From a virus (Duplodnaviria > Caudoviricetes), in IMG/VR virus record IMGVR_UViG_3300030098_005088, positions 1-53,806 of that record: a DNA stretch of 53,806 bases. One strand, written 5' to 3'. How positions within the stretch are numbered: position 1 is the first letter of the stretch; every line of letters starts with the position of its first letter. The notes beneath the pieces are model-generated. The model worked only from the letters and a program-made list of their open reading frames with translations. It ran no database searches and was not told where the DNA came from. Below, in pieces: positions 1 through 53,806 of the stretch. Both the position numbers and the translations under genes were made by a program.

Positions 1-95
1 TAACATGTAAAGCTCTATCATTGTTTGGTTGTGTTTCAATAAGTTGTCCATTATCTGTTAATATATTAACATGTATAGCACATACTTCATCATTA
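1..95. repeat. Terminal direct repeat / assembly overlap, left copy
   Basis: Identical to 53712-53806 except position 19 C versus 53730 T; an ORF reads in frame across the joined ends. Confidence 0.95.
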
Positions 96-271
96 TCAAT
101 GTACAGACCTTTAAATAGTACTTTAACTCTATCTCCTGGTTTTACACCATCAGGTAATAACTCTTCATCTTTACTACCTGGTTCAAATTTATATGTTACG
201 TGTCCCTTATAGGGAAGTAAGAATACTCCCCCATAAATATTAGCTTCACGTAATCTAATTTTTCTTGCCAT
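1..271 (-). CDS. 2H phosphoesterase-like protein, N-terminal part (154 aa when joined to 53711->53518)
   Basis: ATG at 271 preceded by AGGAGG; manual translation MARKIRLREANIYGGVFLLPYKGHVTYKFEP...DRALHV|TITSGDFP... gives two HVT motifs; missing from the ORF track because it spans the junction. Confidence 0.7.
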   Translation of the reverse strand, partial: MARKIRLREANIYGGVFLLPYKGHVTYKFEPGSKDEELLPDGVKPGDRVKVLFKGLYIDNDEVCAIHVNILTDNGQLIETQPNNDRALHV

Positions 272-33300: not shown

Positions 33301-36300
33301 AGTTTTAGATTTTATAAATCATTACAATCAAGCAAGAAAGCTTACAGGAAGAGAAACAGGAACCAAAGAAATAGAATTTACGCAAGCAGAAAAATTCTTC
33401 CAAGAAGTAAAAGCTGAGACAGGTAGTATTTTCACGAATAAAGACCATTTTGCAGCCTTTAAAGACTATATGTACCAAGAGTACTTAACAGAAGTTACTG
33501 GAAGTGATTCTATTGGTAGAAGTTTGAGAAGAGCTGTGAATATGATTTTAGATAGAGATAATCCAATGGCTTTAAGGAATGATCAAAATGGAACTACTAC
33601 TATGCCTTCTTCTAAAGCATTAGAACAAGTGTTATTAGGAAATGTAAGTGAACAAGTAAGGCTTAGTGCTGCTCAAACTAAAGAAATTAGAGATTTAATA
33701 GAAATCTATAGACAGAATATTGAAAATACCCTAAAAGACAAAGGTAATATAATTAAGTTTTCAGATGATTTAATTTTGTCTGAAGCTTCTATATATACTA
33801 GAAAAGATTGGCAAAGACAGCTAACTAATATGGTAACCCAAATAGAAGGTGATAAGCTTTTTAGAATGGGTCATTTAATGAAGAATCTAGATATATTAAA
33901 AGGTTTAGTTGAGAATCCAATGTGGTCAGAAGTTGCTCATTACAAATCATTAAATGATATAGCAGCTAATAAGAAAGAAATAGAAGTTTTACAAAGAGAG
34001 TTTGCAGATTTAAGAATGAACACATTAAAGTTAGTAGAACTTATTTCTAATGCAGCTCAATATGGGGATGTTACTTTATTAAGAACAGCTTTAGACCAGC
34101 AGTTTAATTTAGAAAGAGCATTGGTTGAAGTGAATGAATTTACTGCCAATAAAAAAGCTTATGGCAGAGATACTACATTAGGCAGTCTAGCATCTCAGAT
34201 TGACGTAATGATAAAAGATATTATAAATAAAAGAAATGATAAACTAGGAATTGATAGCTATAATGATGTTCAGAAATTCATAGAAAGCCAGTCTGAGATA
34301 AATAGATATTCTGATAGTGCTGGTAGAATAGTAACTGAAAGACAAACAGTATCTGAGAATGTTTATTTAGATAGATACCAAGTAGGTGATAGAATGATGG
34401 ACATGCTTCGTGGTAATCTTAAATCTACATATGATAACTTTGATGGAGTTTCTGCAGCTGTTAAAGCTGTATTAAACAATCCTGCTATAAAAAATCAACC
34501 TTCACATATTAGAGAAGCTATACTTGAAAACTTAGATAAAATAGGATTAAATGAGCAGTCTTATATAACTCAAATTGTAGAGCCTCAATTAGCTCATCAT
34601 TGGAACGTAATTAAGAATACTAAGAAAGTTAAAGATGCTAACTTAACATATTCTCAATTTATCACTGATACATTTCAGTTGCTAACATCTAGTGGTGGTT
34701 CAAGTAGGATTCAAATAGCTACATATAAAGGTGGAGGTAAGTTAGATTTATCTACAGCTACTGTATCTAATTGGAATAAAGGATTCAATGCTCTTATTGA
34801 TGTATTTGGGTTTGATGCTTCGCCAGGTAGCTTTTTATTAGTTTCTCAAACACATGCAGCTCAAGGAAGATTAACTTCTAAATTAGATATGGCTACTATA
34901 GCTCAAATTAGAGCTGATTTGGGAGCGGGAATAGTCCCTAAGTTTAAAATGAGCGAACTATTAACTGCTGCAGAACAAAATGAACTTGCTAAGTTAATAT
35001 CTGGCAATGTCGTTGTTGGATCAGGTAGAAGAGGTGCTCCTCAGTATGGATTCTTTTCATTGGATTCTAAGACTATGGTTATGATTAATCATAATAAATA
35101 TAAAAGCATTATAGACCAATTTAGAAATCAAAACTCTGATGCTTACAATAGGTTTAAAGATGTATTGGGTCCTGAGACAGTAGAAGCATTCATAAGAGAT
35201 CATTTGAAGATAGATAAGGTTAATTTAACTAATCCTAACGAATCAGTAAATTCAGAGGTTATTGAAACTGTATTACGTGCAACAAGGCTTGCATTTGATA
35301 GACCTGACGTCTTAAGACAGTGGGCTAATGGAACTTTAGACCCTAATGATTTACCTAAAGTATTTAAATACTACAGCCTTTCTAGCCCTAAGAGTGGATT
35401 AGCATTAAATCAAAGAGTTTTAAAGCTAACAGATGCTTTTGTAGATAGAATGTTTGTAAATGACCCAGAATTAGTTCATATACGAGAGAAATACATGCAG
35501 CATAGGGTAGATGCACCTAAGCATAGAAAGTTCATAATATTTGATGAAAAAGACCCTAGCGGCAAAACTGGATTCTTTGATGCTTATACAAGGCATAGAG
35601 ATAGATTGGAAAGACAGCTTATTGAAGAATTTGGAATGTCTCCAGAAGTTGCTAAAGAAACAGCAACTAGGCTTGCAGAAAAAACTAAAGCTGAAAGCAA
35701 AAGTACTGTAGATGGTGAAGTATTTTTAAGCTTACCAGAAATGATATCAATGTTAGTGCCTAAAGGAGCTGACAAGAGTTGGTTCGTATGGGATAAAGGT
35801 GAAATAGTAGGATTTAATGTAGCTATTAAACCAGTAGTATCACATTCTGAAGTTAGCAAAAATGGTGCTATGACTGTAGTTATGGATAAAACAGCCTTTA
35901 AATTTGACCCAGTAATGGATAAAGCTATGAGAAACGCAGATGGTAAATATTGGACTGATTCAATAGCATTCAGGTCTGCTGTTAAAGTTGGTAAAAAATC
36001 TAATGGATGGGGACTTGAACCTACTGATATAGGAGTTGGAATTAAATTAGATACTCCTCTAGAGAAAGAATTAGGTGGAAGATTTAGTGATTGGAAAGAA
36101 GTTGTTGCAAAAGGGCTTGGAGCTTCTCCAAAAGGATTGATTAATCCTGGGATGGTAGAAGTAGATAGAGCTAACATATTGTTAAAATCTATCAGTGGCA
36201 AACATAAAGGATCAGTAAGTGTTGCTTATGGTAACTTTTTATCTAATGATGCTCAAAAAGTATTAGACAACTGGCTTGGAAGTACTGCTAATATATTTGA

Positions 36301-39300
36301 TTTAACTAGAAAGCTTTCTGTTATGAAAGATAATCCTTATGCATTACTACAAGTAGGTAGAGAAATGAGTAGAAATGAACTTCAGTCTGGAGATAGAAGT
36401 AGTAGACTTTCAGGTTTAGAGTTTATATTATCTGAAGGAGGATTACCTACATATGAATTCATGAGACCTCAAATAGAAAAATCATTAACATCATACTATA
36501 TGAATACTCAGAACTTTGTTAACGGTGAGATTAAGTTTGGAGGATATAATGTTATGACTGCAGGGTCAGGACTCTCTGATCCTATTAGGCATGCGGGGAT
36601 ACAAACTTCTTTTGGAGGCTCTGCTGTCCCTCATTTTACTGGGGAACAAGTAATAGGTCATATGTTAAGTTCGACTCATGCTGACGGAATTCCTTTAGTT
36701 ATGAAACTATCTAGTGCTAAGGCAAAAGAATTAAATAGAGTTTTAATAGATAAAATCAAAAAAACTGGTTTAAAGCTTGAAGTTGAAGATGCTAACTTTT
36801 TCGCTAAAGGTGAAGAGTATCTAGGCCTTCATTCTTTATCTGGAGATATGGTTACTGGTCCTATAATAGGTAAAATTAATAGAATTATATTAGATGGTAA
36901 CAGAACTACTAATAGGGAGATAGACCAAACATTTAGAAATAAAATAAATACAGCTGTAAGAGAAACTTTAATAGATGTTATAGCTAAAGATTATAGAGGA
37001 ATATTGAAGAATGCTTCAATTGAAATAGATAAAAGTAATATATCTTATAGTGATTTCGTTAAATACTTAGATAGAGGGTTTGATAAAAATCTAATTGAAA
37101 CCTCTGATCAATTAAACAGAGAATACAGAGTAAAGACAGGAAAGAATGCTAATTCAGGATATGCTGCCACTAAAACAGGATATGATGGTATCTTTGCGTC
37201 AGCTATAGACTTAAGAACTCCTAAAGATGGTATTAATAGCTGGGTAATTAGTAAAGTAGAAAAGATATTAGATAAAAGAAGAGGAGCTGTAAGTGAGATT
37301 AATCAAGCTGATGCGATAAATCCTCAAGATGCTGATTTCGATTTAGATAAAAGTGCTCAATTTACAACATCTCCATCTAAAGTAGTAGAAGAAATATATG
37401 GAGGTGCAGGTTATCACCAAAAGTCAAGTATAGAAATATTAAAGAAAGCTGGAATGGAACTTAAGATTGAAGGCCCAACATACGAGGTATATGTAAATGA
37501 AATGCTAGCACAATTAGACTCTCAAAGAGCTCCATTGGTTAGACAGCATTCAATAGCATCTTTTATTATGCAATACTTTTCTTCTGTTAATGAAGCGAGA
37601 ATGTACAATATATTAAAACCTGGATATAGAACGGGTGTTGACTTTACAGACGGGATAAGTAGAGTATCTAATAGCATACATGATACAGCAGTTATTTCAG
37701 AGTTTAAAGGATCTAATGACCAGTTATATAAAGTTTCCTTTAGAGAAGCTGGAGAATTTGTAGACTCTGTTCAGTTTATGAAAAGCATGATTAAAGAGAT
37801 GATTGATGTACATGGCTCACCTAAAGATTTAGGAGGTGTTAATACAAGAGATTTCTTTTGGTTTTCTAATAAAGTAGGCTTATTTAAAATACAGAAAAAA
37901 GACTTTAAATCAGGTAAATATGAAGAGATTAATTGGAATGATATGAGTGCTGATGTTAGAGCTGTTCAAAAAGGTTTATCAAAGCATGTAGTCAAACCTT
38001 TGAATGATATATTTAATTTAAAAAATGGAGTTGAGACCCTAAGCGACGGGTCAAGTAGAAAGCTTACTGTATATGATTATGTTAGTATTTTTAATAATGC
38101 TAAATGGGAGATGTCTAGATTAAAACCTTTTAAGGTATGGGACCCTACTCAGAAAAAAATGGTTTCTGTAACTCCTTATATGGACAGAAATAAAAGGCCT
38201 ATGTTAGAATCTTTTGCTAATGATATGCTTGCATTTTTAGGAGATGGTTGGTCTCAACGTAATGGAACAGCAAATCATCCTCTTATAAAAGGTTTAAATG
38301 AATTAAGCAAAGCTTTAGATAAGCAATTTACAGGAAGAGATATACAGAGAAATGACCTTCTTGCTAATTTAATAGAAGGTAAGATGCATCCTACCGATGA
38401 AGTAGTAAGCAAAGCATTAAAAGAATATGTTAGAGATGAACAAAGATGGGTAGAGCTATCTAGTGTAAGATGGGAAATAAATAGACTTTCAGATATATTA
38501 AATGATATGCAGGTTTTTAGACAAGATAAAACCAATGAATACGCTAAAAAACAGGCTAGACTAGAAAGACTTAGTAAAATTATGGATGCTGCAGAAACAG
38601 AATTTAATAACACATATATAGGCAAGGCAATTCCTAAAACAAAACGTGGAGGTTATTCAGCAACAGAAGTAACTAGAGTCTATAAGTTAAATGCTAATAA
38701 AGAAGTTATTGACTTTACAGATTATAGACCAGGAGAATTCATTAAGTTTAATAGAGGTGATGTTGTTATTGAAAATCCTAGAAGATATGTTATATCTGAC
38801 AATTTAGATCAAGACCATAGAAGAGCTATGTATAGAGCGTTTGGTAATAGGAATAAAGGAGTTTCAGAGTTTGATGCTTTCCATAAAAATGGTTATATTA
38901 GAGAGCTTAAAAGAGACCTATTTAGCAAAATTGGCGATTTAAATAAAAATAGCTCCGATCAAACTATTAGAGACAGTCAGTTTTATTCTGATATATCTGA
39001 GATGGAATTAAGTATCATGAGAGATGTTTATAATAAAGCTAAAATGAGAGGAGATGCATATGCTACTCAGTTCTTATGGAGCTTATTAACTCCTAAAGTA
39101 AATCAAAATGTAGTATCTATTATGAATTATGATGCTCATGCAAACTCTTATTTCAATTCTTTTTATTTCAACTCTAATAAAAGGTCTGAGAAATTAGTTG
39201 TTAGCTTTTTAAGTAGGGCTATGGAAGGTAAGGTTCCTGAGATATCTTCAAATGATGCGAGGAGTATCTTAAAAAACATAGATAAGAGAAAAAACTTAGC

Positions 39301-39736
39301 ATTAGTTAAAGAATGGGGTAAAACATTAGATGGCGAAGCATTTAGAATGGTGGACAGAGATATAGAAAGAAACATAACTGATTTTAGAGTGCTCCCAGAA
39401 AGAAGTGATTCTCCTCACTGGAATAGAGTTGATGTTAAAAATGAAAGTGCTAGAAGAATAATGCAATCATATATGACAGGTTCTTATAGATTAGACCCTA
39501 TTGAACTATATAGACTTACTGCAGCATTAGATAAAACTAATAACAGTATGATAGATGTAAATAGAATGAGTGAATTAGTTAAAGGTTATTGGACTGATAT
39601 AAGTGATATTGACTTAGGTAGAGGTTCATTTAGATATTCCAGAAGGTCTATGAGAGAAAAAATGGAATTAAACAGAGAATATACTAAAAAAAGAGACGCA
39701 TTAGAGGCTATTGAAGAGTCGGCTTGCGGATTATAA
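30362..39736 (+). CDS. Giant virion protein with putative two-barrel (crAss-like) DNA-dependent RNA polymerase
   Basis: DADFDLDK catalytic-loop-like motif (37328-37351), upstream LRTPKDGINS, VDGEVFL, MDKTAF and FRSAVKVG in the order I recall for crAss-type virion RNAPs. Confidence 0.78.
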   Translation: MNYEEENSQYDYLANQPSYLDQLSGNQAGGSLEALKPIQYDSMQQWRVFDPQGYQSAISQLQEEQEQSQDPNYFLTDDKYIPGVSDLTTFVGSALWGATEAVSMGALTALNQSYRGEIGKSFGYEAWENAAVSGKAGYLAGSIPASLYTLGLTGKGLRAASGALGIGQKTLAKFGAKQVAKGTDDILSQVTKASGMSDDVATDVFQLANKSIKEGTDEALAAAETWKTSSRIKKNPFGDSDLRLDIQNRTRIAIKSKLDDMVKAGDDGAEWAAKVGANPNAIDNIVNESLKQAQQYGHLGAGNFSRALAIKLGDGKAASYVGDAVYESILLATHSAAHTIIGNYSADALDLSEEEYQRRSWMKDALFSAVTGWFFPAVRRIGGGKDVQIAWDGMIPRAQSGSLKDFQTMTKALWQKLNSQPKVTWDNAAKTFGKDSQFTPKQVQTMLRNIYNASGKSDDVFRNAGPGFNISFLTDSNALNHASSLKALYNAYNSVTKDALKIAVPMMKEIGKDLTQSMFRMVPGTVVMNAHTWHETDWDHYPADKMVVDVVTGMLFMKRKHRAPGEKLKDFYGSGEYTGAELAKYAKTLDILNYDKKTLDYYAGVYSTLDVNEQLAKQLVGRANKSTQDRRDLSAMVEKDKLNNIKLEEDITTRTARGEDVRSFEEHGALNYTKKIQEAKRLRDQGRDAEAKAIEQQATKELAEWDIARKLVASLELGVSKESIRHMTETEAIDFIKKLNSIKWKGKEVTHENVDDFLRESRIAAVNEVTADIQGLMEGYIKNSLNALGMWNDAMVQKGGRINVHKDVLDVLDIVNKDINHAKSAEVLKAVLHMADKLNIIRLGEEGIKFESSRRENPVGKETLDLLTQEYKAATDLMHDKVFNDGMSNWRNVVPGKTKEGFLDVNILAATPIWDAMHTNMLHMRNAVGYDLVTGRNLTGMKDNRLGELHDKIDRELYEGNANVAIKDVPSSKDVPHVQEVLDFINHYNQARKLTGRETGTKEIEFTQAEKFFQEVKAETGSIFTNKDHFAAFKDYMYQEYLTEVTGSDSIGRSLRRAVNMILDRDNPMALRNDQNGTTTMPSSKALEQVLLGNVSEQVRLSAAQTKEIRDLIEIYRQNIENTLKDKGNIIKFSDDLILSEASIYTRKDWQRQLTNMVTQIEGDKLFRMGHLMKNLDILKGLVENPMWSEVAHYKSLNDIAANKKEIEVLQREFADLRMNTLKLVELISNAAQYGDVTLLRTALDQQFNLERALVEVNEFTANKKAYGRDTTLGSLASQIDVMIKDIINKRNDKLGIDSYNDVQKFIESQSEINRYSDSAGRIVTERQTVSENVYLDRYQVGDRMMDMLRGNLKSTYDNFDGVSAAVKAVLNNPAIKNQPSHIREAILENLDKIGLNEQSYITQIVEPQLAHHWNVIKNTKKVKDANLTYSQFITDTFQLLTSSGGSSRIQIATYKGGGKLDLSTATVSNWNKGFNALIDVFGFDASPGSFLLVSQTHAAQGRLTSKLDMATIAQIRADLGAGIVPKFKMSELLTAAEQNELAKLISGNVVVGSGRRGAPQYGFFSLDSKTMVMINHNKYKSIIDQFRNQNSDAYNRFKDVLGPETVEAFIRDHLKIDKVNLTNPNESVNSEVIETVLRATRLAFDRPDVLRQWANGTLDPNDLPKVFKYYSLSSPKSGLALNQRVLKLTDAFVDRMFVNDPELVHIREKYMQHRVDAPKHRKFIIFDEKDPSGKTGFFDAYTRHRDRLERQLIEEFGMSPEVAKETATRLAEKTKAESKSTVDGEVFLSLPEMISMLVPKGADKSWFVWDKGEIVGFNVAIKPVVSHSEVSKNGAMTVVMDKTAFKFDPVMDKAMRNADGKYWTDSIAFRSAVKVGKKSNGWGLEPTDIGVGIKLDTPLEKELGGRFSDWKEVVAKGLGASPKGLINPGMVEVDRANILLKSISGKHKGSVSVAYGNFLSNDAQKVLDNWLGSTANIFDLTRKLSVMKDNPYALLQVGREMSRNELQSGDRSSRLSGLEFILSEGGLPTYEFMRPQIEKSLTSYYMNTQNFVNGEIKFGGYNVMTAGSGLSDPIRHAGIQTSFGGSAVPHFTGEQVIGHMLSSTHADGIPLVMKLSSAKAKELNRVLIDKIKKTGLKLEVEDANFFAKGEEYLGLHSLSGDMVTGPIIGKINRIILDGNRTTNREIDQTFRNKINTAVRETLIDVIAKDYRGILKNASIEIDKSNISYSDFVKYLDRGFDKNLIETSDQLNREYRVKTGKNANSGYAATKTGYDGIFASAIDLRTPKDGINSWVISKVEKILDKRRGAVSEINQADAINPQDADFDLDKSAQFTTSPSKVVEEIYGGAGYHQKSSIEILKKAGMELKIEGPTYEVYVNEMLAQLDSQRAPLVRQHSIASFIMQYFSSVNEARMYNILKPGYRTGVDFTDGISRVSNSIHDTAVISEFKGSNDQLYKVSFREAGEFVDSVQFMKSMIKEMIDVHGSPKDLGGVNTRDFFWFSNKVGLFKIQKKDFKSGKYEEINWNDMSADVRAVQKGLSKHVVKPLNDIFNLKNGVETLSDGSSRKLTVYDYVSIFNNAKWEMSRLKPFKVWDPTQKKMVSVTPYMDRNKRPMLESFANDMLAFLGDGWSQRNGTANHPLIKGLNELSKALDKQFTGRDIQRNDLLANLIEGKMHPTDEVVSKALKEYVRDEQRWVELSSVRWEINRLSDILNDMQVFRQDKTNEYAKKQARLERLSKIMDAAETEFNNTYIGKAIPKTKRGGYSATEVTRVYKLNANKEVIDFTDYRPGEFIKFNRGDVVIENPRRYVISDNLDQDHRRAMYRAFGNRNKGVSEFDAFHKNGYIRELKRDLFSKIGDLNKNSSDQTIRDSQFYSDISEMELSIMRDVYNKAKMRGDAYATQFLWSLLTPKVNQNVVSIMNYDAHANSYFNSFYFNSNKRSEKLVVSFLSRAMEGKVPEISSNDARSILKNIDKRKNLALVKEWGKTLDGEAFRMVDRDIERNITDFRVLPERSDSPHWNRVDVKNESARRIMQSYMTGSYRLDPIELYRLTAALDKTNNSMIDVNRMSELVKGYWTDISDIDLGRGSFRYSRRSMREKMELNREYTKKRDALEAIEESACGL

Positions 39737-39745
39737 AGGGGAATT

Positions 39746-42733
39746 ATGAGTTATTGCCACGGACAAAGATTTAATACTGAAGAACAAAAAACTAGAGTTA
39801 AAGATGTGAAGAAAGTAGTCTCTGGTTTTGTTAGTAACCCTAAGGTTGTTGCTACAGGATATGGTGATTTCAGTACATTTAAATGGCTCTGGAATAAGGC
39901 TACTGGGACTCCCTGGGATCCTGTAACATTTAAAATAGATAAGTCTGATATAGCAAGGTTTAAAGTTGAGGCTTCTGATTTTATATCAGAAATAGGTAAA
40001 AATCCTGCAGGGTGGAGGCAATGGTTTAAACTTCCTAAAAGATTAACAGATAAAATGCCTGAAACTGAAGCTTTTACTCAAGGAATATCTGATGCAATAT
40101 CTTTCAGACAAAGACATTTAAGAGAAAATGGTGTTAAAGTAGATAGCATGCTTAAAGGTTTAGAAAAAATGTTTCATATGGAAGAATATTATGGAAAAGC
40201 TATAAAAAAATCAGATTATAGAGAGTATCAAAACTTAGAATTAGAATTAGAGCTTGCTAAATCAGTAACCCAAAGAAGAAAAGCTTTAGATAAGATTATT
40301 AAAAAAGCAGGATTAAAAGATTCTGATAACAATCCAGTATTAGGGCAGATATTATTTAGATTTAATGATTTAATTACTTTTAGATCAAATGCTAAGAATG
40401 AAGTAGAAAGACAGATACAAAGAGATTGGAATGATGTAAGGAAAGATTCAGCTTCTATGGCATTATCTGGTATAAATCATGCAAAAAGATTAATACAAAC
40501 TGTAAAAGACCTGCCTACAAGACATCGACTTAAGTTGGCTATTTCTAGATTAGAATCGGCTGCAAATAGAATATTCTTTCAATCTAAAACAGATAATCTT
40601 AAAATAGTAAAAGACCCAGATTTATCTCAGTTTAGAATAAAAGAGAACGAAATTCAAGTTTATGATGCTGACTCTAATACTATGAAGCCTCATAAAGTAT
40701 ATGACCCTTCTACAAATAAATTTGAAACTCCTATAGAGCTTACAAAGTATGCTCCAGAATATGTTATAGAATTAGCAAATACAACTAGATATATTACTGA
40801 GTTTGCAATGAATCCTAAAGATGCTAGATTTAAAGATATGACAGCAGATAAGATATTAAATGAAATTGAAACTAAAGTTGATTTAGGTTCTATGATCAAT
40901 AGACTTAAAGCTAAAGGAGATGCTCAGTCAGAGCATTTTTATTCATTAGACCCAGCTTTCTATCTAAAGAAATATATACATGATGTATCTCATTTTAACT
41001 TTGCTACTAAAATACATTTAGATTATAAGAATGCAGTAGATAAGATGTTTAGTGTTATTCGTAAGGGTAAATATAATACTGCGGAGCTATCTGATTGGGC
41101 TAAGTCTCATTTAGATGTATTAACAGATATTAAAGACTCTGCTTTAAACATGCATGAAGGTAAAATAGCTGAAATGAATAATGTAGTAAGAGCTATTACA
41201 GGCTTAGAATATATATCAAAGTTAGGATTTAGTATAAAAGGTGCTATCAAGAATAGAACTCAAGGTCTGTTTGATTTTATACAATTTGGAACTAGGATAT
41301 ATACTAAGGTTCCTGATTTTTATTCATCTAATAAGATGCACGTAGAAATGGCTGATAGACAGATGAATAGATTTGGTTTTAAATTCGGAGAAAAAGCTAC
41401 TGCTGCTGGCATAGCTGAAGCCACTAGAGGTTCTATAGATATTGAAAAAGCTAATAGAATAGACCCTGAAAAAGGATTAACTATTGAAGGAATGAGTAAA
41501 GGAACTGTTGCTAACAGAGCTATTGATGCTTCTGCTGACTTCGCATCAGGTTTCTGGGGCCCTTTATCTCATAAAGGAGTTGAGAATTCAAACAGAATTA
41601 ATACATTTAAGCGTTCTTTTGCTTTAACATATATGGAAATGATGAAACAATCTGATTATTGGGCTAAAGAATGGATGAGATCTAGGAATACTAATGTTGA
41701 ACCATCAGATAAACAGCTTGCTGAGTTTATAGAGTATAAAGCTGGTAATTTATCTGCTAATATGGTTAAGACGCTTCACTTTGAATATGATAGGTGGGCT
41801 AAGGCTAAAGTATTAAAAACTGGTCCAGGTCAAGTTGTAGGTCAGTTCCAAACTTTTAAATTTGCATTCTGGGATTTACAATATCAAATGTTGAAAGGTG
41901 CTGTCAAGGATGCTAGAGCTGGAACTATGATAAGGGATGGAAAAATATCCCCTGAAGTTGCTAGAGCTATGAGATTATTATCAATGTATTCATTTATAAC
42001 TTATGGCATATCAGCATTAACTGACCATGATTTTACAAATGTTATACAGAATGATAGCTTTCAGTTTATGAGTCAAATAAGTGATTGGCTAACAGCTGAT
42101 CCAGATAGCGCTACAACAAATGAAGAATTTGAAAGAGAAGTAAAGAAAAAACACATGTCTTTCTTTGGAGGAGGTCCTTTGGTAGGTAATATGGGTCCTG
42201 CGGTAAATGATTTACTTGCATTAGCAGAACTATATGATTTCTGGGATAGAACTCCAGCTGAATACCAAGAACTGCTTCATCATAAATACAATCCAGATGA
42301 CCCTAAATGGAATGAAAATGTGGATAGAATCATAATGGGTAATGCATTAGCTAGATGGAAATGGCATGTAATACCTTCTTTATTAAGAGGTTCTGAAGAA
42401 TCCACATTAAGACAGGTTACAGGTCTATATCAACCTAAATGGGTTGATAAATGGATACCTATTGATCCGTTCAACATGAGAGATATGGATGAGTCTTTTT
42501 CTAAGCAAAGAAGAGATTGGCTTAAAGATAAGCCCTGGAGTGTAGCTAATTTATATTCTAAATATATATTAGATGGTCAAAAAGAAGTATTTAAAAAGTC
42601 TAACAAGAAGGGCTCTATTAATGACTATTATAGACTAACAGGACAATCACATTTAAAACCACCATCTGTCGAAACTGGGGAAAGTCTGGAAGCGATAGAT
42701 ATACTAGATAAGATATTAGCTGGGGAATTATAA
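39746..42733 (+). CDS. Large internal virion / ejection protein
   Basis: 995 aa helical; LHFEYDRWAK...VGQFQTF segment resembling podovirus ejection proteins; last gene of the arm. Confidence 0.6.
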   Translation: MSYCHGQRFNTEEQKTRVKDVKKVVSGFVSNPKVVATGYGDFSTFKWLWNKATGTPWDPVTFKIDKSDIARFKVEASDFISEIGKNPAGWRQWFKLPKRLTDKMPETEAFTQGISDAISFRQRHLRENGVKVDSMLKGLEKMFHMEEYYGKAIKKSDYREYQNLELELELAKSVTQRRKALDKIIKKAGLKDSDNNPVLGQILFRFNDLITFRSNAKNEVERQIQRDWNDVRKDSASMALSGINHAKRLIQTVKDLPTRHRLKLAISRLESAANRIFFQSKTDNLKIVKDPDLSQFRIKENEIQVYDADSNTMKPHKVYDPSTNKFETPIELTKYAPEYVIELANTTRYITEFAMNPKDARFKDMTADKILNEIETKVDLGSMINRLKAKGDAQSEHFYSLDPAFYLKKYIHDVSHFNFATKIHLDYKNAVDKMFSVIRKGKYNTAELSDWAKSHLDVLTDIKDSALNMHEGKIAEMNNVVRAITGLEYISKLGFSIKGAIKNRTQGLFDFIQFGTRIYTKVPDFYSSNKMHVEMADRQMNRFGFKFGEKATAAGIAEATRGSIDIEKANRIDPEKGLTIEGMSKGTVANRAIDASADFASGFWGPLSHKGVENSNRINTFKRSFALTYMEMMKQSDYWAKEWMRSRNTNVEPSDKQLAEFIEYKAGNLSANMVKTLHFEYDRWAKAKVLKTGPGQVVGQFQTFKFAFWDLQYQMLKGAVKDARAGTMIRDGKISPEVARAMRLLSMYSFITYGISALTDHDFTNVIQNDSFQFMSQISDWLTADPDSATTNEEFEREVKKKHMSFFGGGPLVGNMGPAVNDLLALAELYDFWDRTPAEYQELLHHKYNPDDPKWNENVDRIIMGNALARWKWHVIPSLLRGSEESTLRQVTGLYQPKWVDKWIPIDPFNMRDMDESFSKQRRDWLKDKPWSVANLYSKYILDGQKEVFKKSNKKGSINDYYRLTGQSHLKPPSVETGESLEAIDILDKILAGEL

Positions 42734-48523: not shown

Positions 48524-49045
48524 TTAACATATCTGAAAGCCTCCGCTCTCTCCGACAAATGTAGCAAATCTTCTTACATTTTCTTCAGCAAAAGGATAGT
48601 TTCTTGAAAATGAATCAGGTTCTTCTTCATCTGTCAATCTTTGATATTCTTCTTCATATTCTTTAACAGTGCCATTATCCAATAATCTCACTAATCTTTT
48701 AGATATTTTTTTAGATTTTGCTTTGCTTATTACTTTCCCATCATTATAGCTTCCAGCATTCATCTCTTCTTCACTCAGAATATCACTACATTGCTGACAA
48801 ACAAAGTGCCATAAAGGTCTCCACCACCATACATTGTTTCTAAAATATACACCTGGATTATCCTCTTCATATCTTTCCATACTATTCCAGTATTTCTTTC
48901 TATCTTCAGACGTTAAACCTTCTAGCAATTTATGTTGTTCTTTAAAATCTTCCAATAATTCTAATTCTGAATAAATTGGATATAAAGTTGTATCAGTTTT
49001 CTCAGTATTAATCTGAGGTTTTACTCCATAAACATCGAATCCCAT
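48524..49045 (-). CDS. Phage hypothetical protein
   Basis: MGFDVYG...YFRNNVWWWRPLW...FVGESGGFQIC; AGGAG SD. Confidence 0.75.
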   Translation of the reverse strand: MGFDVYGVKPQINTEKTDTTLYPIYSELELLEDFKEQHKLLEGLTSEDRKKYWNSMERYEEDNPGVYFRNNVWWWRPLWHFVCQQCSDILSEEEMNAGSYNDGKVISKAKSKKISKRLVRLLDNGTVKEYEEEYQRLTDEEEPDSFSRNYPFAEENVRRFATFVGESGGFQIC

Positions 49046-49054
49046 ATTTCTCTC

Positions 49055-49267
49055 CTATTCTTTTCTATATTTCATTTCTCTTCTTAGTAAAGCTTTATTA
49101 CTTTGCTTTTTAATTTCATGATATTTCTTTTGAATATCCATAAAAGTATCTAAGTCTTTCATCTTCATTTGACAATCCATCACTTCTAAGAACTCCCATA
49201 ATTCATCAATATATTCTACCAATGTTGCAGTAGTTCTGCTTTGTAGTATTGTTTCATCTAAGTACAT
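49055..49267 (-). CDS. Hypothetical protein
   Basis: AGGAG SD. Confidence 0.65.
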   Translation of the reverse strand: MYLDETILQSRTTATLVEYIDELWEFLEVMDCQMKMKDLDTFMDIQKKYHEIKKQSNKALLRREMKYRKE

Positions 49268-49294
49268 TTTTTCTCCTAATTAAATTATAAGTTA

Positions 49295-49390
49295 TTAGAG
49301 AGAATGCCTGCGTTTTGCGTATGCAGTATTGATATAATCTCATGCTTCATCGACTTATTGAGTGTCTTCTCGGGACTTACATCTCTCTAA
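49295..49390 (-). ncRNA. Candidate structured element A (closed four-way junction)
   Basis: TTAGAGAGA/TCTCTCTAA closing stem with three short internal stems; strand tentative. Confidence 0.35.
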
Positions 49391-49397
49391 ATTATTA

Positions 49398-49552
49398 ATA
49401 GTTGATATGCTACGGAGGACGCCGCCGAGGTAGCACTCGACCTGGACCTTTAGTTACCAGGGACATGGGGTGGAGGCGTCACGGTATCGCTGCTGTTTAC
49501 GGGGTAAACTCCCTGTCTGCACGATTCGTTTGCTTGTCCTATATCAAACTAT
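49398..49552. ncRNA. Candidate structured element B (GC-rich, potential double pseudoknot)
   Basis: Closing stem, GACGCC/GGCGTC, CCTGG/CCAGG, CGAG/CTCG, GTTTAC/GTAAAC and crossing TGCTAC/GTAGCA pairing. Confidence 0.5.
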
Positions 49553-49561
49553 TTCAAATTT

Positions 49562-49649
49562 AGGGGTAGCGTTTAGGATTCTAGTAGCTGATTCTATTGG
49601 TATTGTTTGACACATCATCAGTTGCTAGCATTGGATCGATACTACCCCT
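49562..49649. ncRNA. Candidate structured element C (long interrupted hairpin)
   Basis: AGGGGTAG/CTACCCCT and CTAGTAGCTGAT/ATCAGTTGCTAG stems. Confidence 0.4.
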
Positions 49650-49664
49650 CTCCTCCGCACAAAA

Positions 49665-50348
49665 CTATCTAGCAAGAACCTTCTCCATAGTCATACTAGG
49701 GAAATGAAATGATATAAATTTATCATAAGGTTGTCTTGTTGTTAGTTTTCTCACAGTATTAGAAATAAATGAACCACTCATATTGGAACAATAGCTGGTT
49801 GCTTTTGCATTACAGGGTTCAGGATCACCAGATTCATCTGAGTACCATGTTGAATTGTATTGCGGAACTGTTGGATATTTGAGGACATATTGTTGATAAT
49901 GCTCAGCACCCATTCTACCGTCTATCATTGCAAAAGGAGATAATTTCTTATCAGCACAGATTTTTTCTACAGCATTTAATCTAGCTTTCATACTATCAAA
50001 GGCTAGTATTACTATATCTTTTCTATTTTGATAAGATATTTGTTCAAACATTCCTATATTTATCTCAACGTATAAATTACCAGGAATAGATTCTAAATGT
50101 TTTTTCAAAGCTCTAACTTTAAACTCATTTACATCTTCCTTGGTATATAAAGATACGCCAAGATTTTCTATTGCTACTTTATCTAAATCATATAGATAGA
50201 AATCATCAGCCCCCATTCTACGTAATTGCATAGCAGTACAACTACCTATAGCTCCACATCCTAAGATATGAAAAGAGTGCTCATGTAAGTTATTTACTAA
50301 TCCAGAGGATCTTTCGTTAAATTCCATGTAAATATCCTCCATATCCAT
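49665..50348 (-). CDS. ThiF/MoeB-family E1-like (ubiquitin-activating) enzyme
   Basis: ILGCGAIGS, YDLDKVAIENL, FKVRAL, AFDSMKAR, IDGRMG, candidate catalytic Cys in EPCNAK. Confidence 0.92.
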   Translation of the reverse strand: MDMEDIYMEFNERSSGLVNNLHEHSFHILGCGAIGSCTAMQLRRMGADDFYLYDLDKVAIENLGVSLYTKEDVNEFKVRALKKHLESIPGNLYVEINIGMFEQISYQNRKDIVILAFDSMKARLNAVEKICADKKLSPFAMIDGRMGAEHYQQYVLKYPTVPQYNSTWYSDESGDPEPCNAKATSYCSNMSGSFISNTVRKLTTRQPYDKFISFHFPSMTMEKVLAR

Positions 50349-51276
50349 CGTCTATATCTTCATATTCTACAAAATCATGGTCATCGTTATGTTGAATAGC
50401 ATCAAATAATTCACCTTTATGCATTAGAATTATCTTATATTGAAAGCCTTCTTCATCAGCTTGAGCATTGATTTTATTGACTCTGTTTTTATATTTAGTA
50501 TAACTTAATTCACCCATAATGTAATTATGGTTTAGTTCTTTAACTGAATCTACCATATTTAGATATTCTTTAATATCTTCAGGAGATTGACTTAAAGCTT
50601 GAGTTGTTGGATTATTTAACATTGGTTCATGAATTGGTTTATCCCACAGAGTAGCTTGTTGTTGATTTCCAGTTAGTTTATATCCTGTAGTTCTTGCAGT
50701 TCCCCATCCTGAATAGCCTGAGTAACCTTTATGAATTACAGTTTCTTTACTACATAGTTCTTCTACTTCTGTTTGAATAGCATCAGGTACAGTTTTACCT
50801 TCTAATCCTATTACTTCAAACTCTACGTCTTGATGAATTTCTATTGGTTTCCAAATAGATACTCTAAATTTATATTCTTGTTTTAAATTTATAACAAGAG
50901 CAAAACTTATATCTCCTTCATTAAATTCATCAATAGCTGTTAAGTCTGTTGAGCTCCAGAATGCTGCCATAGTATGATGTGAATGCCACCAACAAAATCT
51001 AAAATTCATATCTTTATATTTCATTGCTGTTTTTCCATAATACTGCGCTAATGCATCTTTGTCTAGGTCACAGTTACCTCCACTAACTTCCTGTTTAAGT
51101 ATTACTGGGTCCATTAACACCCAATCACCCTTTTTAATATCTGTTTTTTCTGAATCACTTGGAGACTCAACCATAACAGCCATACCTCCTATTTCAGCTT
51201 TCCATTTATTATAAGCATGTTGAGCATAATGATGCATTTTCATCCAGTTTTTATGAGTTGTTAAGAAACGGTTCAT
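50317..51276 (-). CDS. JAB/MPN+ (JAMM) metallo-isopeptidase with C-terminal extension
   Basis: AEIGG (Glu) and WWHSHHTMAAFWSSTD = HxH-x7-S-x2-D. Confidence 0.9.
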   Translation of the reverse strand: MNRFLTTHKNWMKMHHYAQHAYNKWKAEIGGMAVMVESPSDSEKTDIKKGDWVLMDPVILKQEVSGGNCDLDKDALAQYYGKTAMKYKDMNFRFCWWHSHHTMAAFWSSTDLTAIDEFNEGDISFALVINLKQEYKFRVSIWKPIEIHQDVEFEVIGLEGKTVPDAIQTEVEELCSKETVIHKGYSGYSGWGTARTTGYKLTGNQQQATLWDKPIHEPMLNNPTTQALSQSPEDIKEYLNMVDSVKELNHNYIMGELSYTKYKNRVNKINAQADEEGFQYKIILMHKGELFDAIQHNDDHDFVEYEDIDDGYGGYLHGI

Positions 51277-53029
51277 CGTCTGGTTCCTCCCATTGTTGCA
51301 TTATAGTTTCCTCTGAAACATTCTCTGCTTCAGCTTGTTCTTCTTCTGTTATTTCAGGTAGATGGTCATTCCTTCTATTGTGAGGATGGTCGTCTCTGTC
51401 ATCATATGATTCAGATGTATATTCCCCATTGTCTCGCAATTCATAGTTAGGATCTTCAGCATCCGCTGCTCTTTCCATTGAAGTTCTATTAACATTAATA
51501 GGTTGTGCTGTTTGACCATTTGCTGCCATTTGTGCTAGTATTCTATCTTCTTTAGCTTTTTGTGAAGCTTTCTTTCTTTCTTCTGGGTCTTCATTAGCTA
51601 ACTCACGTAAACCATCAAATACATTACTGTTTAAATAACAATTAACAAATGTATAAAGACTATCTGCTTTATCTTCATTGCTTAATCTATCATATAAACT
51701 ATCCCACTCTATATGAAGGTTAATCATAGTATCGTAATATTCTCCAATAGTCTGATCGTCTAGTCCTTCATGTAGCTGGTTTTGAAAATATACTCTTATA
51801 TCACTATCAGTAAATCCTTTATGAGTAAGAAAGTCTTGAAATATTTTCGATATCTCACTTTCACTATACTTTACACTTAATATTTGATATATTGTACAAT
51901 TTCCTCTATTTTCGCATTTGTCGTTATCACATATTTGTTGTACATGAGAATAATCTTCTATGACAGTTCTATCATCAGCCTCTCTTAATCCACTTACTAT
52001 TTGGCATCTTTCATGTCTTCCTATTACATCATACATTTCAGTAGGGAATATTGAAGGTTTGCCTACAAAAGTATCTCTTATATTATTAAGAGGATTAGTC
52101 GAAGGAACTCTATATATACTGTTCCATATATTTAGCATAGTTAATGCTTCTTCTAGTTCCAGTTTATATATATGTGTTTGTATTTGTTTACCTAAATCAC
52201 CTAAACATATTTGGTTTCTTACATTATAGTTAGTCAAGATATTTTCTTCATTATTTGCATTAGTACGCTCATATGGAGACCTATATCTTCTAGATATATA
52301 AGGATGCTGTTTAAAGTATCTAGTACCAAAATAATATCCATATATGTCCATTTTATTTCCTCTGCTATAATATCCATCACGAAAGGCAGGATTGCATCCG
52401 CTAATAAAGTTGTTTAAGTGTTTAAACATATTAACAGAAAATAATAACTGCACTTTATGTCTAGGTATTTCTCCTATTAGTTGATCTTGATTAAACAATG
52501 AGAAATGTCCTTCAGGTAAATCTATAACTATATTCCATGTAAATCTTCTATACGATGGTGCCCCAGTATCTTCATTATATATTGGGTTAATAGTTACTGA
52601 TACATTATCAATAGATGATATTTCATTCATTCTACTTTTTATAGAATCAAAAGCATCTTCTATTTGCTCTGTATTGTCAGTCATTACAATGTTTTGCCTA
52701 GTTAAATGATTTCTCATATCTTCTATTTTTAGTATATCTCTCTTAAAATTATTAGCACTATAGCTATAAGAGCTCATTCTGTCAAATATAGAATACATTC
52801 CGCTAGGTTTCATTTTAAATCTTAAGCCTTCATTAGCATAAGATGTCTTTATGGTATTATAAGTACCTGGAGACCAATAAAACTTTTTAGTAAGTTTTAC
52901 ATTAGTTCCCCATCTTGAATTGAATCGTTCTAATTCTTCTAATATTTCTGCTTGCGGTCCAAGGAATATGTTATTTGCCACCTCTTCAATATTAGGGTTG
53001 AACTCATCTATTTGCATTATTTCATTCAT
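51251..53029 (-). CDS. Large protein with a prokaryotic E2/UBC-like core
   Basis: HPYIS...QICLGD...TMLNIW...TNPLN, resembling the E2 HPN(I)...(I)CL signature; lies between Ubl and JAB. Confidence 0.7.
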   Translation of the reverse strand: MNEIMQIDEFNPNIEEVANNIFLGPQAEILEELERFNSRWGTNVKLTKKFYWSPGTYNTIKTSYANEGLRFKMKPSGMYSIFDRMSSYSYSANNFKRDILKIEDMRNHLTRQNIVMTDNTEQIEDAFDSIKSRMNEISSIDNVSVTINPIYNEDTGAPSYRRFTWNIVIDLPEGHFSLFNQDQLIGEIPRHKVQLLFSVNMFKHLNNFISGCNPAFRDGYYSRGNKMDIYGYYFGTRYFKQHPYISRRYRSPYERTNANNEENILTNYNVRNQICLGDLGKQIQTHIYKLELEEALTMLNIWNSIYRVPSTNPLNNIRDTFVGKPSIFPTEMYDVIGRHERCQIVSGLREADDRTVIEDYSHVQQICDNDKCENRGNCTIYQILSVKYSESEISKIFQDFLTHKGFTDSDIRVYFQNQLHEGLDDQTIGEYYDTMINLHIEWDSLYDRLSNEDKADSLYTFVNCYLNSNVFDGLRELANEDPEERKKASQKAKEDRILAQMAANGQTAQPINVNRTSMERAADAEDPNYELRDNGEYTSESYDDRDDHPHNRRNDHLPEITEEEQAEAENVSEETIMQQWEEPDDEPFLNNS

Positions 53030-53047
53030 TTGCCCTCCAAGGTTGTA

Positions 53048-53104
53048 TAAAAGGGAAATATATACTAATATCCTCCGACAAGATATATTCTACACCTCCC
53101 TTTT
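53048..53104 (-). terminator. Stem-loop with U tract between Ubl and E2 (terminator/attenuator)
   Basis: AAAAGGGAGGUGUA/UAUAUUUCCCUUUU with three G-U pairs on the - strand. Confidence 0.6.
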
Positions 53105-53120
53105 AAATGATTAAAGTTTA

Positions 53121-53363
53121 CTATCCGATTACATAATAGACAACTGATTCTAACCCACCAGTTTTATTATTTTGGACAGCTGCTATTATTTGACCATCTG
53201 ATAATTCAAAATCGTCTGTTCTAACAACTCCATCAACACTTACTGACGCACCTGAAGCTATATCAAGTTCAGTTCTTAAAGCTCCAACTGTACCTGCATT
53301 TACTTCTTGTTCTTCAAATCCACCACCTGATAGTATTCTTACTTTTTTACTTGCGTTTGCCAT
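53121..53363 (-). CDS. Ubiquitin-like (beta-grasp) protein with GG plus 10-aa C-terminal extension
   Basis: KVRILSGG, GTVGALR, SVSVDG, DFELSDGQII, KTGG-LESVVYYVIG; AAGGAG SD. Confidence 0.88.
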   Translation of the reverse strand: MANASKKVRILSGGGFEEQEVNAGTVGALRTELDIASGASVSVDGVVRTDDFELSDGQIIAAVQNNKTGGLESVVYYVIG

Positions 53364-53374
53364 TTGGCTTCTCC

Positions 53375-53518
53375 TTATTTATCTTTATTATTATCTCGTT
53401 TTACTTCTTTCCATTTACTTTTAGGAATATATTTCCATTCATCAGAGTTAACTAAGGAATATGCTACATCGTCAGCTACTCTTTTGATCTCACCATTACT
53501 ATGTTGGATACATTTCAT
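53375..53518 (-). CDS. Small hypothetical protein (47 aa, MKCIQHSNGEIKRVADD...WKYIPKSKWKE)
   Basis: Manual translation; AGGAG SD; TGATG coupling to the upstream 2H gene. Confidence 0.65.
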   Translation of the reverse strand: MKCIQHSNGEIKRVADDVAYSLVNSDEWKYIPKSKWKEVKRDNNKDK

Positions 53519-53806
53519 CAGAATCTCCTCGATTTATCCATCATTCTCTTATCACTTCGATATATATCAAAGTACCCTATACGCTCTATAGGATTAGTGA
53601 ACACGGTATAAAACTTAGATTTTGCTAATAATTCCATATCAGTAGATGCAGATAATAATTCTGTCAATCTAATTCCAGCTTCTTGTTTAGGAAAATCACC
53701 AGATGTTATAGTAACATGTAAAGCTCTATTATTGTTTGGTTGTGTTTCAATAAGTTGTCCATTATCTGTTAATATATTAACATGTATAGCACATACTTCA
53801 TCATTA
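53518..53806 (-). CDS. 2H phosphoesterase-like protein, C-terminal part
   Basis: Continues the frame from 271->1; contains the second HVT motif; stop TGA at 53518-53520. Confidence 0.7.
   Translation of the reverse strand, partial: NDEVCAIHVNILTDNGQLIETQPNNNRALHVTITSGDFPKQEAGIRLTELLSASTDMELLAKSKFYTVFTNPIERIGYFDIYRSDKRMMDKSRRF
53712..53806. repeat. Terminal direct repeat / assembly overlap, right copy
   Basis: Matches 1-95 with one mismatch. Confidence 0.95.

Follow-up and report, generated by a model that had tools for sequence, protein, structure and literature searches.

A tailed-phage ubiquitin-like protein as a predicted capped precursor, encoded beside a JAMM peptidase, an E1-like enzyme, and a candidate E2-like protein

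Synthesis as a capped precursor is a textbook feature of ubiquitin-like proteins (Ubls). To our knowledge, the prokaryotic operons of Ubl, activating enzyme (E1), conjugating enzyme (E2), and JAB peptidase that have been studied so far are cellular, and several of them act against phages. Here we analyse a putative Ubl gene and its neighbours in a stretch of viral DNA of 53,806 bases (the window), which is the complete IMG/VR record IMGVR_UViG_3300030098_005088 of a tailed phage, with terminase, portal, and capsid genes present, and compare them with the closest described systems.

In the archaeon Caldiarchaeum subterraneum, pro-ubiquitin bears a nine-residue pro-peptide and is refractory to E1 until this is cut off by a neighbouring Rpn11/JAMM homologue; the same JAMM enzyme also deconjugates (PMC5654768). 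In the bacterial BilABCD system, BilC cuts BilA between a conserved glycine and the next residue (PMC10557695), some BilA homologues carry 2–9 extra residues (10.1101/2023.09.04.556158), and BilC is a deconjugase too (PMC10557695; 10.1101/2023.09.04.556158). The sulfur carrier CxnE, from a natural-product gene cluster, has a di-glycine followed by a decapeptide, and a proposed role of CxnF, a JAMM protein from the same cluster, is to expose the di-glycine before adenylation; QbsE/QbsD is the corresponding case with two residues (PMC5925218). For the tail-assembly Ubl (TAPI) of lambda/T1 phages and the JAB domain of TAPK, Iyer and colleagues (2006) predicted cleavage at the C-terminal glycine (PMC1779556). 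The premise of the original prediction for this window, namely that JAB proteases mature such precursors and that an E1 needs an exposed glycine, is thereby borne out by precedent (PMC5654768; PMC10557695). JAMM maturation of Ubl precursors is already established, and the phage Ubl adds a further instance of it; novelty lies in the phage-borne module and in an unannotated family that has an invariant cysteine and, on weak evidence, resembles E2 enzymes.

At the phage locus, four genes on the same strand are arranged in the order Ubl, X592 (a protein of 592 residues), JAB, and E1, with overlaps of 26 nucleotides (X592/JAB) and 32 nucleotides (JAB/E1). We consider it about 70% probable that Ubl is a capped precursor that the JAMM peptidase trims, the E1 activates, and Cys275 of X592 receives. 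The features on which this reading depends are as follows.

53371..53376, minus strand: ribosome-binding site (Shine-Dalgarno) AAGGAG, 7 nucleotides 5' of the Ubl ATG, read from the sequence
53361-53363, minus strand: Ubl start codon ATG, by codon reading
53121..53363, minus strand: Ubl precursor gene, 80 amino acids plus TAG stop, from the list of open reading frames and the sequence
53154..53159, minus strand: Gly69-Gly70, the predicted mature C-terminus (Gly69 at 53157-53159, Gly70 at 53154-53156)
53124..53153, minus strand: C-terminal extension LESVVYYVIG, codons 71–80, a predicted pro-peptide
51251..53029, minus strand: X592, 592 amino acids, a candidate E2-like enzyme from a virus-borne family
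50317..51276, minus strand: JAMM/JAB metallopeptidase, 319 amino acids, the predicted maturase and deconjugase
49665..50348, minus strand: ThiF/MoeB-type E1-like adenylating enzyme, 227 amino acids

Seven of the 10 residues of LESVVYYVIG are hydrophobic, and the TAG stop (53121-53123) is directly followed by TAA. The di-glycine at 53154-53159, and the hydrophobic decapeptide between it and the stop, were given exactly in the original prediction, both in coordinates and in reading.

The Caldiarchaeum system is alike in its small beta-grasp modifier with a short pro-peptide after the di-glycine, and a JAMM gene is present in the phage module as well; it differs in being archaeal and chromosomal and in having a recognisable E2 and a small RING ligase (E3), whereas the module described here is phage-borne and its E2-like candidate matches no profile. 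Caldiarchaeum ubiquitin and the phage Ubl share approximately 24% identity over the structural alignment. BilABCD likewise comprises four separate genes for Ubl, E2, JAB deubiquitinase, and E1, but is a bacterial defence that tags phage tail proteins, whereas the phage module was detected only in viral contigs. BilABCD is by definition a bacteria-encoded anti-phage system, and the phage module is instead encoded in a complete phage record and in 80 viral contigs; its gene order (Ubl, E2-like, JAB, E1) and its E2-like protein, which is 592 residues long and combines a helical N-terminal domain with a cysteine cluster, also set it apart. CxnE/CxnF and QbsE/QbsD belong to natural-product clusters with sulfur-transfer partners, unlike the phage locus, where none was found among the eight neighbours scanned. 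The lambda/T1 pair offers a phage beta-grasp protein with a conserved C-terminal glycine and an adjoining JAB domain, but it is part of a tail-assembly module without an E1, whereas the present module lies outside the structural genes and includes an E1 together with an E2-like candidate. A full-text word search of a limited collection of papers found no description of a phage module of Ubl, E2-like, JAB, and E1 genes, although the Bil supplements might list phage-borne homologues.

The evidence that bears most directly on a capped precursor comes from the relatives of Ubl. A pattern scan of IMG/VR gave 84 stretches encoding Ubl relatives, from which 80 loci were retained, and 33 relatives, the window's own entry included, were found among 5.8 billion proteins; pooled, these 113 sequences comprise 91 distinct ones. 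The di-glycine is at the same place in 80/80 viral loci, and in the alignment of the 33 proteins (A1) Gly70 is invariant and Gly69 at least 90% conserved; both glycines belong to an NK(T/S)GG motif, and Lys67 is likewise invariant. No position after the di-glycine is invariant. Tails are absent in seven of the 80 loci and have a length of one residue in 8, two in 34, three in 13, and four in 2; among the longer ones, lengths of 6, 7, 10, and 14 occur once each, 9 in four loci, 18 in five, 31 once, and 60 twice. Among the 91 distinct sequences, six end at the di-glycine, 52 have 1–4 extra residues, and 33 have at least six, such that 85 carry at least one extra residue and 58 have between none and four. 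The three tail-length classes require at least nine changes on a quick, poorly resolved tree. A comparison of homologues, which the original prediction had put forward with the expectation that the di-glycine would be invariant and the tail variable, comes out in this way (80/80 loci, Gly70 in 33/33 proteins, tails of 0–60 residues).

Because the di-glycine is retained in every locus while tail length ranges from 0 to 60 residues, the di-glycine is, judged from these sequences, under strict selection and the extension labile. At the same level of evidence, this combination is characteristic of modifiers or carriers in which the reactive C-terminal glycine would be exposed by proteolysis. Extensions of 31 or 60 residues would certainly block an E1, and the di-glycine is kept despite them (L075, L058, and L060). 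At these three loci (L058 674-1111, L060 5944-6381, and L075 5971-6285), the 60 or 31 residues beyond the di-glycine look less like a tail than like a small fused domain, and they recall ubiquitin fusion proteins.

Ubl matches no family at E ≤ 0.1 in Pfam, PHROG, NCBIfam, or PADLOC, and a precomputed match to Pfam ThiS (PF02597) is present for 4 of its 33 relatives. With A1 as input, both to AlphaFold2 and to profile searches, the Ubl model has a beta-grasp topology (strands 6–13, 15–21, 39–43, 46–48, and 58–64; helix 26–33) with a mean predicted local distance difference test score (pLDDT) of 68.6; pLDDT is below 50 for residues 65–73 and 75–80, the whole tail included, and no strand is predicted in the tail. 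In Foldseek searches against the PDB, the best match is the ThiS/MoaD-like protein Mth1743 (1ryj; E 1.4e-4, template modelling scores 0.65/0.72), next comes Caldiarchaeum ubiquitin in complex with the Rpn11 homologue (E 5.7e-4 for 6fno_D, and 8.5e-4), and MoaD, ThiS, and eukaryotic Ubl domains are among the further matches. The A1 profile searched against PDB sequences gives weak matches to ThiS (2lek; E 0.052) and MoaD (E 0.072). As modelled, Ubl is a ubiquitin-like beta-grasp protein of the ThiS/MoaD/ubiquitin kind.

The JAB protein matches the PADLOC JAB profile at E 5.7e-6; its score against Pfam Prok-JAB, 16.9 bits, is under the 25-bit cut-off. Its predicted catalytic residues are located as follows.

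50944..50985, minus strand: JAMM motif HSHHTMAAFWSSTD (His98, His100, Ser108, and Asp111)
51193-51195, minus strand: Glu28, 5' of the JAMM motif

For conservation counts, sequences of fewer than 250 residues were dropped, which left 58 JABs (the window and 57 of 62 loci), 53 of them distinct. HxHx7Sx2D is present in 53/53, and Glu28, His98, His100, Ser108, and Asp111 are invariant. Past the peptidase domain, the C-terminal half of JAB (50317-50800 in the window) adds approximately 150 residues, among which Cys175, Gln207, Gly255, and Asn270 are conserved; no family was found for these approximately 150 residues.

All seven loci whose Ubl ends at the di-glycine (L027, L028, L051, L053, L074, L080, and L082) still encode a JAB, with the motif intact in every sequence examined; JAB is thus not kept only for tail trimming. 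By analogy with the Caldiarchaeum enzyme and BilC, the obvious second role would be removal of Ubl from conjugates. The argument in the original prediction that JAB is functionally linked to the cascade through trimming is weakened by these tail-less loci. Its further suggestion, that the tail provides an on-switch, is doubtful: tails of 0–4 residues predominate (58/91), tail-less loci keep JAB, and because the X592, JAB, and E1 genes overlap and are probably made together, a regulatory switch seems unlikely.

The E1 matches Pfam ThiF at E 4.2e-18 (65.8 bits; the cut-off is 28.1), its best NCBIfam rows are ThiF adenylyltransferases, and its 227 residues contain no extra domain. After removal of sequences of fewer than 200 residues, 54 E1s remained, of which 48 are distinct; in these, the GCGAIGS loop (residues 30–36), Arg13, Asp54, Asp56, Asp118, Asp143, Cys179, and Cys187 are invariant.

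X592 is the least familiar component of the module, with the following features.

51251..53029, minus strand, layout: N-terminal helical bundle (residues ~22–116), UBC-like core (~120–320), cysteine cluster, and acidic tail
52205..52207, minus strand: Cys275, the candidate catalytic cysteine
51896..52006, minus strand: cysteine cluster Cys342, Cys367, Cys372, and Cys378, a possible metal-binding module

No family is found for X592 in Pfam, PHROG, PADLOC, or NCBIfam; the single NCBIfam row that it has is weak and falls far under the cut-off. A profile built from 34 members retrieves 535 cluster representatives at E ≤ 0.001 and 286 at E ≤ 1e-30; a word-indexed homologue search with the X592 alignment gave four proteins only. 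Residues 1–410 of the window protein were aligned with 125 relatives (126 sequences; this set excludes short proteins, those matching the profile only in part, and the window's own entry). Cys275 and Pro313 are invariant in 126/126, and Gly24, Pro25, Gln26, Asn37, Thr47, Gly55, Pro243, Trp302, Asn315, Gly323, Cys342, Cys372, and Cys378 are at least 90% conserved; Cys367 is at least 90% conserved in 34 sequences. The cysteine cluster may bind metal. The local pattern consists of HP(Y/F)I, a variable loop, (V/I)CxG(D/N), a helix, W, and T(G/N)P(L)N, with Cys275 following the HP loop, and we take this HP...C...W...P.N region to resemble the active-site region of E2 enzymes.

The AlphaFold2 model of X592 is confident (pLDDT 88.5, predicted template modelling score 0.86) and consists of a helical N-terminal domain, a helix, a five-stranded sheet, the HP loop, the cysteine, and further helices. 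Within the helical bundle (~22–116; 52736-52963), GPQ (24–26) is nearly invariant, and structural matches are to generic helical bundles only. For residues 115–335, the best three named clusters of the ESM Atlas score 0.89–0.90, and Prok-E2_D (PF14460) is annotated on 11%, 39%, and 15% of their members. Other matches to the UBC superfamily are weak as well. No E2 profile (UQ_con, Prok-E2_A to E) matches X592 at E ≤ 0.1 or its 34 relatives at E ≤ 0.05. Foldseek finds nothing in the PDB for the X592 model at E ≤ 0.001. The 126-sequence profile has no matches among PDB sequences at E ≤ 10. A complex prediction for X592 (1–410) with Ubl (1–70) scored 0.05 against a mark of 0.32 and, run without controls, speaks neither for nor against binding. 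On balance, X592 is quite probably E2-like, with Cys275 as the candidate catalytic residue; because the curated E2 profiles are unmatched and the Atlas gives leads only, we call X592 E2-like rather than filing it as a member of the E2/UBC family.

In the capped-precursor reading, the Ubl open reading frame would encode the precursor of a beta-grasp protein with Gly69-Gly70 as its reactive end, and the ten-residue cap would be removed before the module E1 adenylates Gly70. This pro-protein reading is plausible and, in sequence and by analogy, well supported by comparison and precedent. We infer cleavage, with the module JAMM peptidase most likely as the maturase, which would cut between Gly70 and Leu71; freeing Ubl from its attachment partners is probably a further task of this peptidase. 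The original prediction, too, had the cognate JAB trim the tail. An intact JAMM peptidase and an E1 in the same module, as well as the published precedents, argue for this part, in which the cleavage stays a prediction, and JAB is likely to be a maturase that has another role as well. The ThiF-type E1 would activate the matured Ubl, which would then most likely be passed to Cys275 in the UBC-like core of X592 for attachment to targets; for X592 and the module, we infer an E2 role and conjugation, respectively.

The precursor and its trimming by JAB would also be part of a sulfur-carrier system, in which only the downstream chemistry differs: a ThiS/MoaD-type Ubl, trimmed by the JAMM peptidase and adenylated, would donate sulfur from a thiocarboxylate to a phage-directed modification or metabolite, with X592 as the sulfur-using enzyme. 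The PF02597 matches of four of the 33 relatives, the weak PDB sequence matches to ThiS (0.052) and MoaD (0.072), the ThiF adenylyltransferase rows of the E1, and the CxnE/CxnF (di-glycine plus decapeptide) and QbsE/QbsD (di-glycine plus two residues) precedents (PMC5925218) are all consistent with such a carrier. However, no rhodanese, cysteine desulfurase, or sulfur-insertion domain is found in eight neighbours with Pfam or in six with NCBIfam (host enzymes could serve instead), the 227-residue E1 lacks an extra domain, and the invariant cysteine of X592 lies in the HP...C...W...P.N pattern, with weak leads to UBC/E2 rather than to a sulfurtransferase. We regard a sulfur carrier as unlikely.

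Two other explanations concern the tail itself. Stop codons could wander 3' of the di-glycine without selection, with Ubl acting without C-terminal activation, as a non-covalent partner, or being matured in part and unspecifically. The range of tail lengths (0–60), the lability of tail sequence, the nine or more changes of length class, and the disorder modelled for the tail would all suit such drift. Without C-terminal chemistry, however, it is difficult to account for an invariant di-glycine together with an intact E1 and an intact JAMM motif across the family, and in Caldiarchaeum, the only system in which this was tested, the untrimmed precursor resists E1 (PMC5654768); in our judgement drift is very unlikely. 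Alternatively, the tail may have a function of its own, as the original prediction also suggested, either as a beta-strand that docks on a partner or on another Ubl, or as a released peptide. The 33 distinct tails of at least six residues do share a loose hydrophobic pattern: counted from the di-glycine, Leu is at +1 in 19/33, Ile, Leu, Val, or Met at +4 in 27/33, Phe, Leu, Tyr, or Ile at +6 in 25/33, and Val or Ile at +8 in 19 of the 29 tails that extend this far. These sequences are relatives, however, and the pattern may be inherited; 58 of the 91 distinct relatives have only 0–4 residues, with the module kept wherever the flank is long enough, and the low-confidence tail is predicted by AlphaFold2 to form no strand. 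We give an independent tail function a very slim chance.

The capped-precursor reading is accompanied by conservation of the module as a whole. Single-sequence searches of the open reading frames at the 80 loci detect X592 in 70, JAB in 62, and E1 in 56; the 18 loci without a JAB have at most 4026 nucleotides of sequence downstream, and the X592 profile raises the count for that protein to 74/80, all tail-less loci included. Short-tailed loci (0–4 residues) with enough flanking sequence keep the same module. All carriers of the module that were found are viral contigs (80 IMG/VR loci for the Ubl relatives), from a family of tailed phages of roughly 45–60 kilobases that is known only from metagenomes. 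Among 185,579 species genomes, searches with one or two peptide patterns, which have limited sensitivity, found no Ubl, and found the E1 on two contigs of one metagenome-assembled genome.

Among 50,697 deposited phage genomes, tblastn with Ubl and with JAB gave no match, and the DNA of 49000-53806 gave no match to deposited phage genomes. The E1 matches 76 deposited phage records, all at less than 60% identity (26–39% among the matches listed); the organism name starts with Bacteroides in 29 and with Flavobacterium in 29, and the Bacteroides and uncultured rows among the matches listed are crAss-like phages. In two cultured phages, Kehishuvirus 'tikkala' (L083, OQ198717, 2091-5705) and Flavobacterium phage Fpv3 (L086, NC_031904, 1536-4606), a JAMM-motif protein that matches the JAB profile of the window module at approximately 1e-8 is encoded directly 5' of a ThiF-like gene annotated as 'thiamine biosynthesis protein'. 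In both, this pair is preceded by a protein of approximately 420 residues, an order that is the same as that of X592, JAB, and E1; no Ubl or X592 relatives are detectable by profile at these two loci.

In the window, terminase, portal, and major head protein are encoded on the plus strand, and a primase-helicase and the Ubl module on the minus strand; the module is located outside the structural genes, within a leftward replication-type block. Positions 53712-53806 are a direct terminal repeat of 1-95 (95 nucleotides, 99% identity, one mismatch), and the mismatch alters one residue (N/D) of the encoded protein. A gene of approximately 157 codons spans the ends of the record (open reading frames 2..271 and 53518..53805, both on the minus strand). 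Being upstream of Ubl, it was considered as an E2, but its sole profile row, to DUF6791, is weak (E 0.036) and its synteny holds in 1/80 loci, and we rejected it as part of the module. Within the structural block, an open reading frame of 3124 amino acids (30362-39736, plus strand) and the next one (39746..42733, 995 amino acids) have no PHROG family at E ≤ 1e-5. Directly 3' of the E1 gene, a non-coding island (49300-49660) has a G+C content of 47–49%, compared with approximately 30% around it, and a folding z-score of approximately −2 on both strands; only short exact patches of it (21–28 nucleotides) recur, in five related loci. The window contains no tRNAs, and 49000-53806 has no Rfam matches at E ≤ 0.1.

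A broader proposal, which we advance tentatively and at rather less than even odds, is that these phages own a complete ubiquitination-like cascade, composed of a pro-Ubl, a virus-only E2-like family, a JAMM maturase/deconjugase, and a minimal E1, which might tag host or phage proteins. Its use might lie in take-over of the host or in counter-defence, an equally tentative suggestion; the genes are co-oriented with replication genes. On the same speculative footing, the helical domain of X592 and its putative metal-binding cysteine cluster might act as a built-in E3, and the semi-conserved hydrophobic tail of the window's clade might, again with the odds somewhat against it, be a docking strand that makes activation dependent on the peptidase.

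The phage context is worth more than the precursor feature, which alone would be one more example of a known arrangement. If the module proves to be a working conjugation cascade, phages themselves would be using ubiquitin-like tagging, and the module would offer a compact system of four proteins to reconstitute. If true, it would also mean that genes annotated as 'thiamine biosynthesis protein' and 'metalloprotease' in cultured phages of Bacteroidota are probable E1/JAB pairs.
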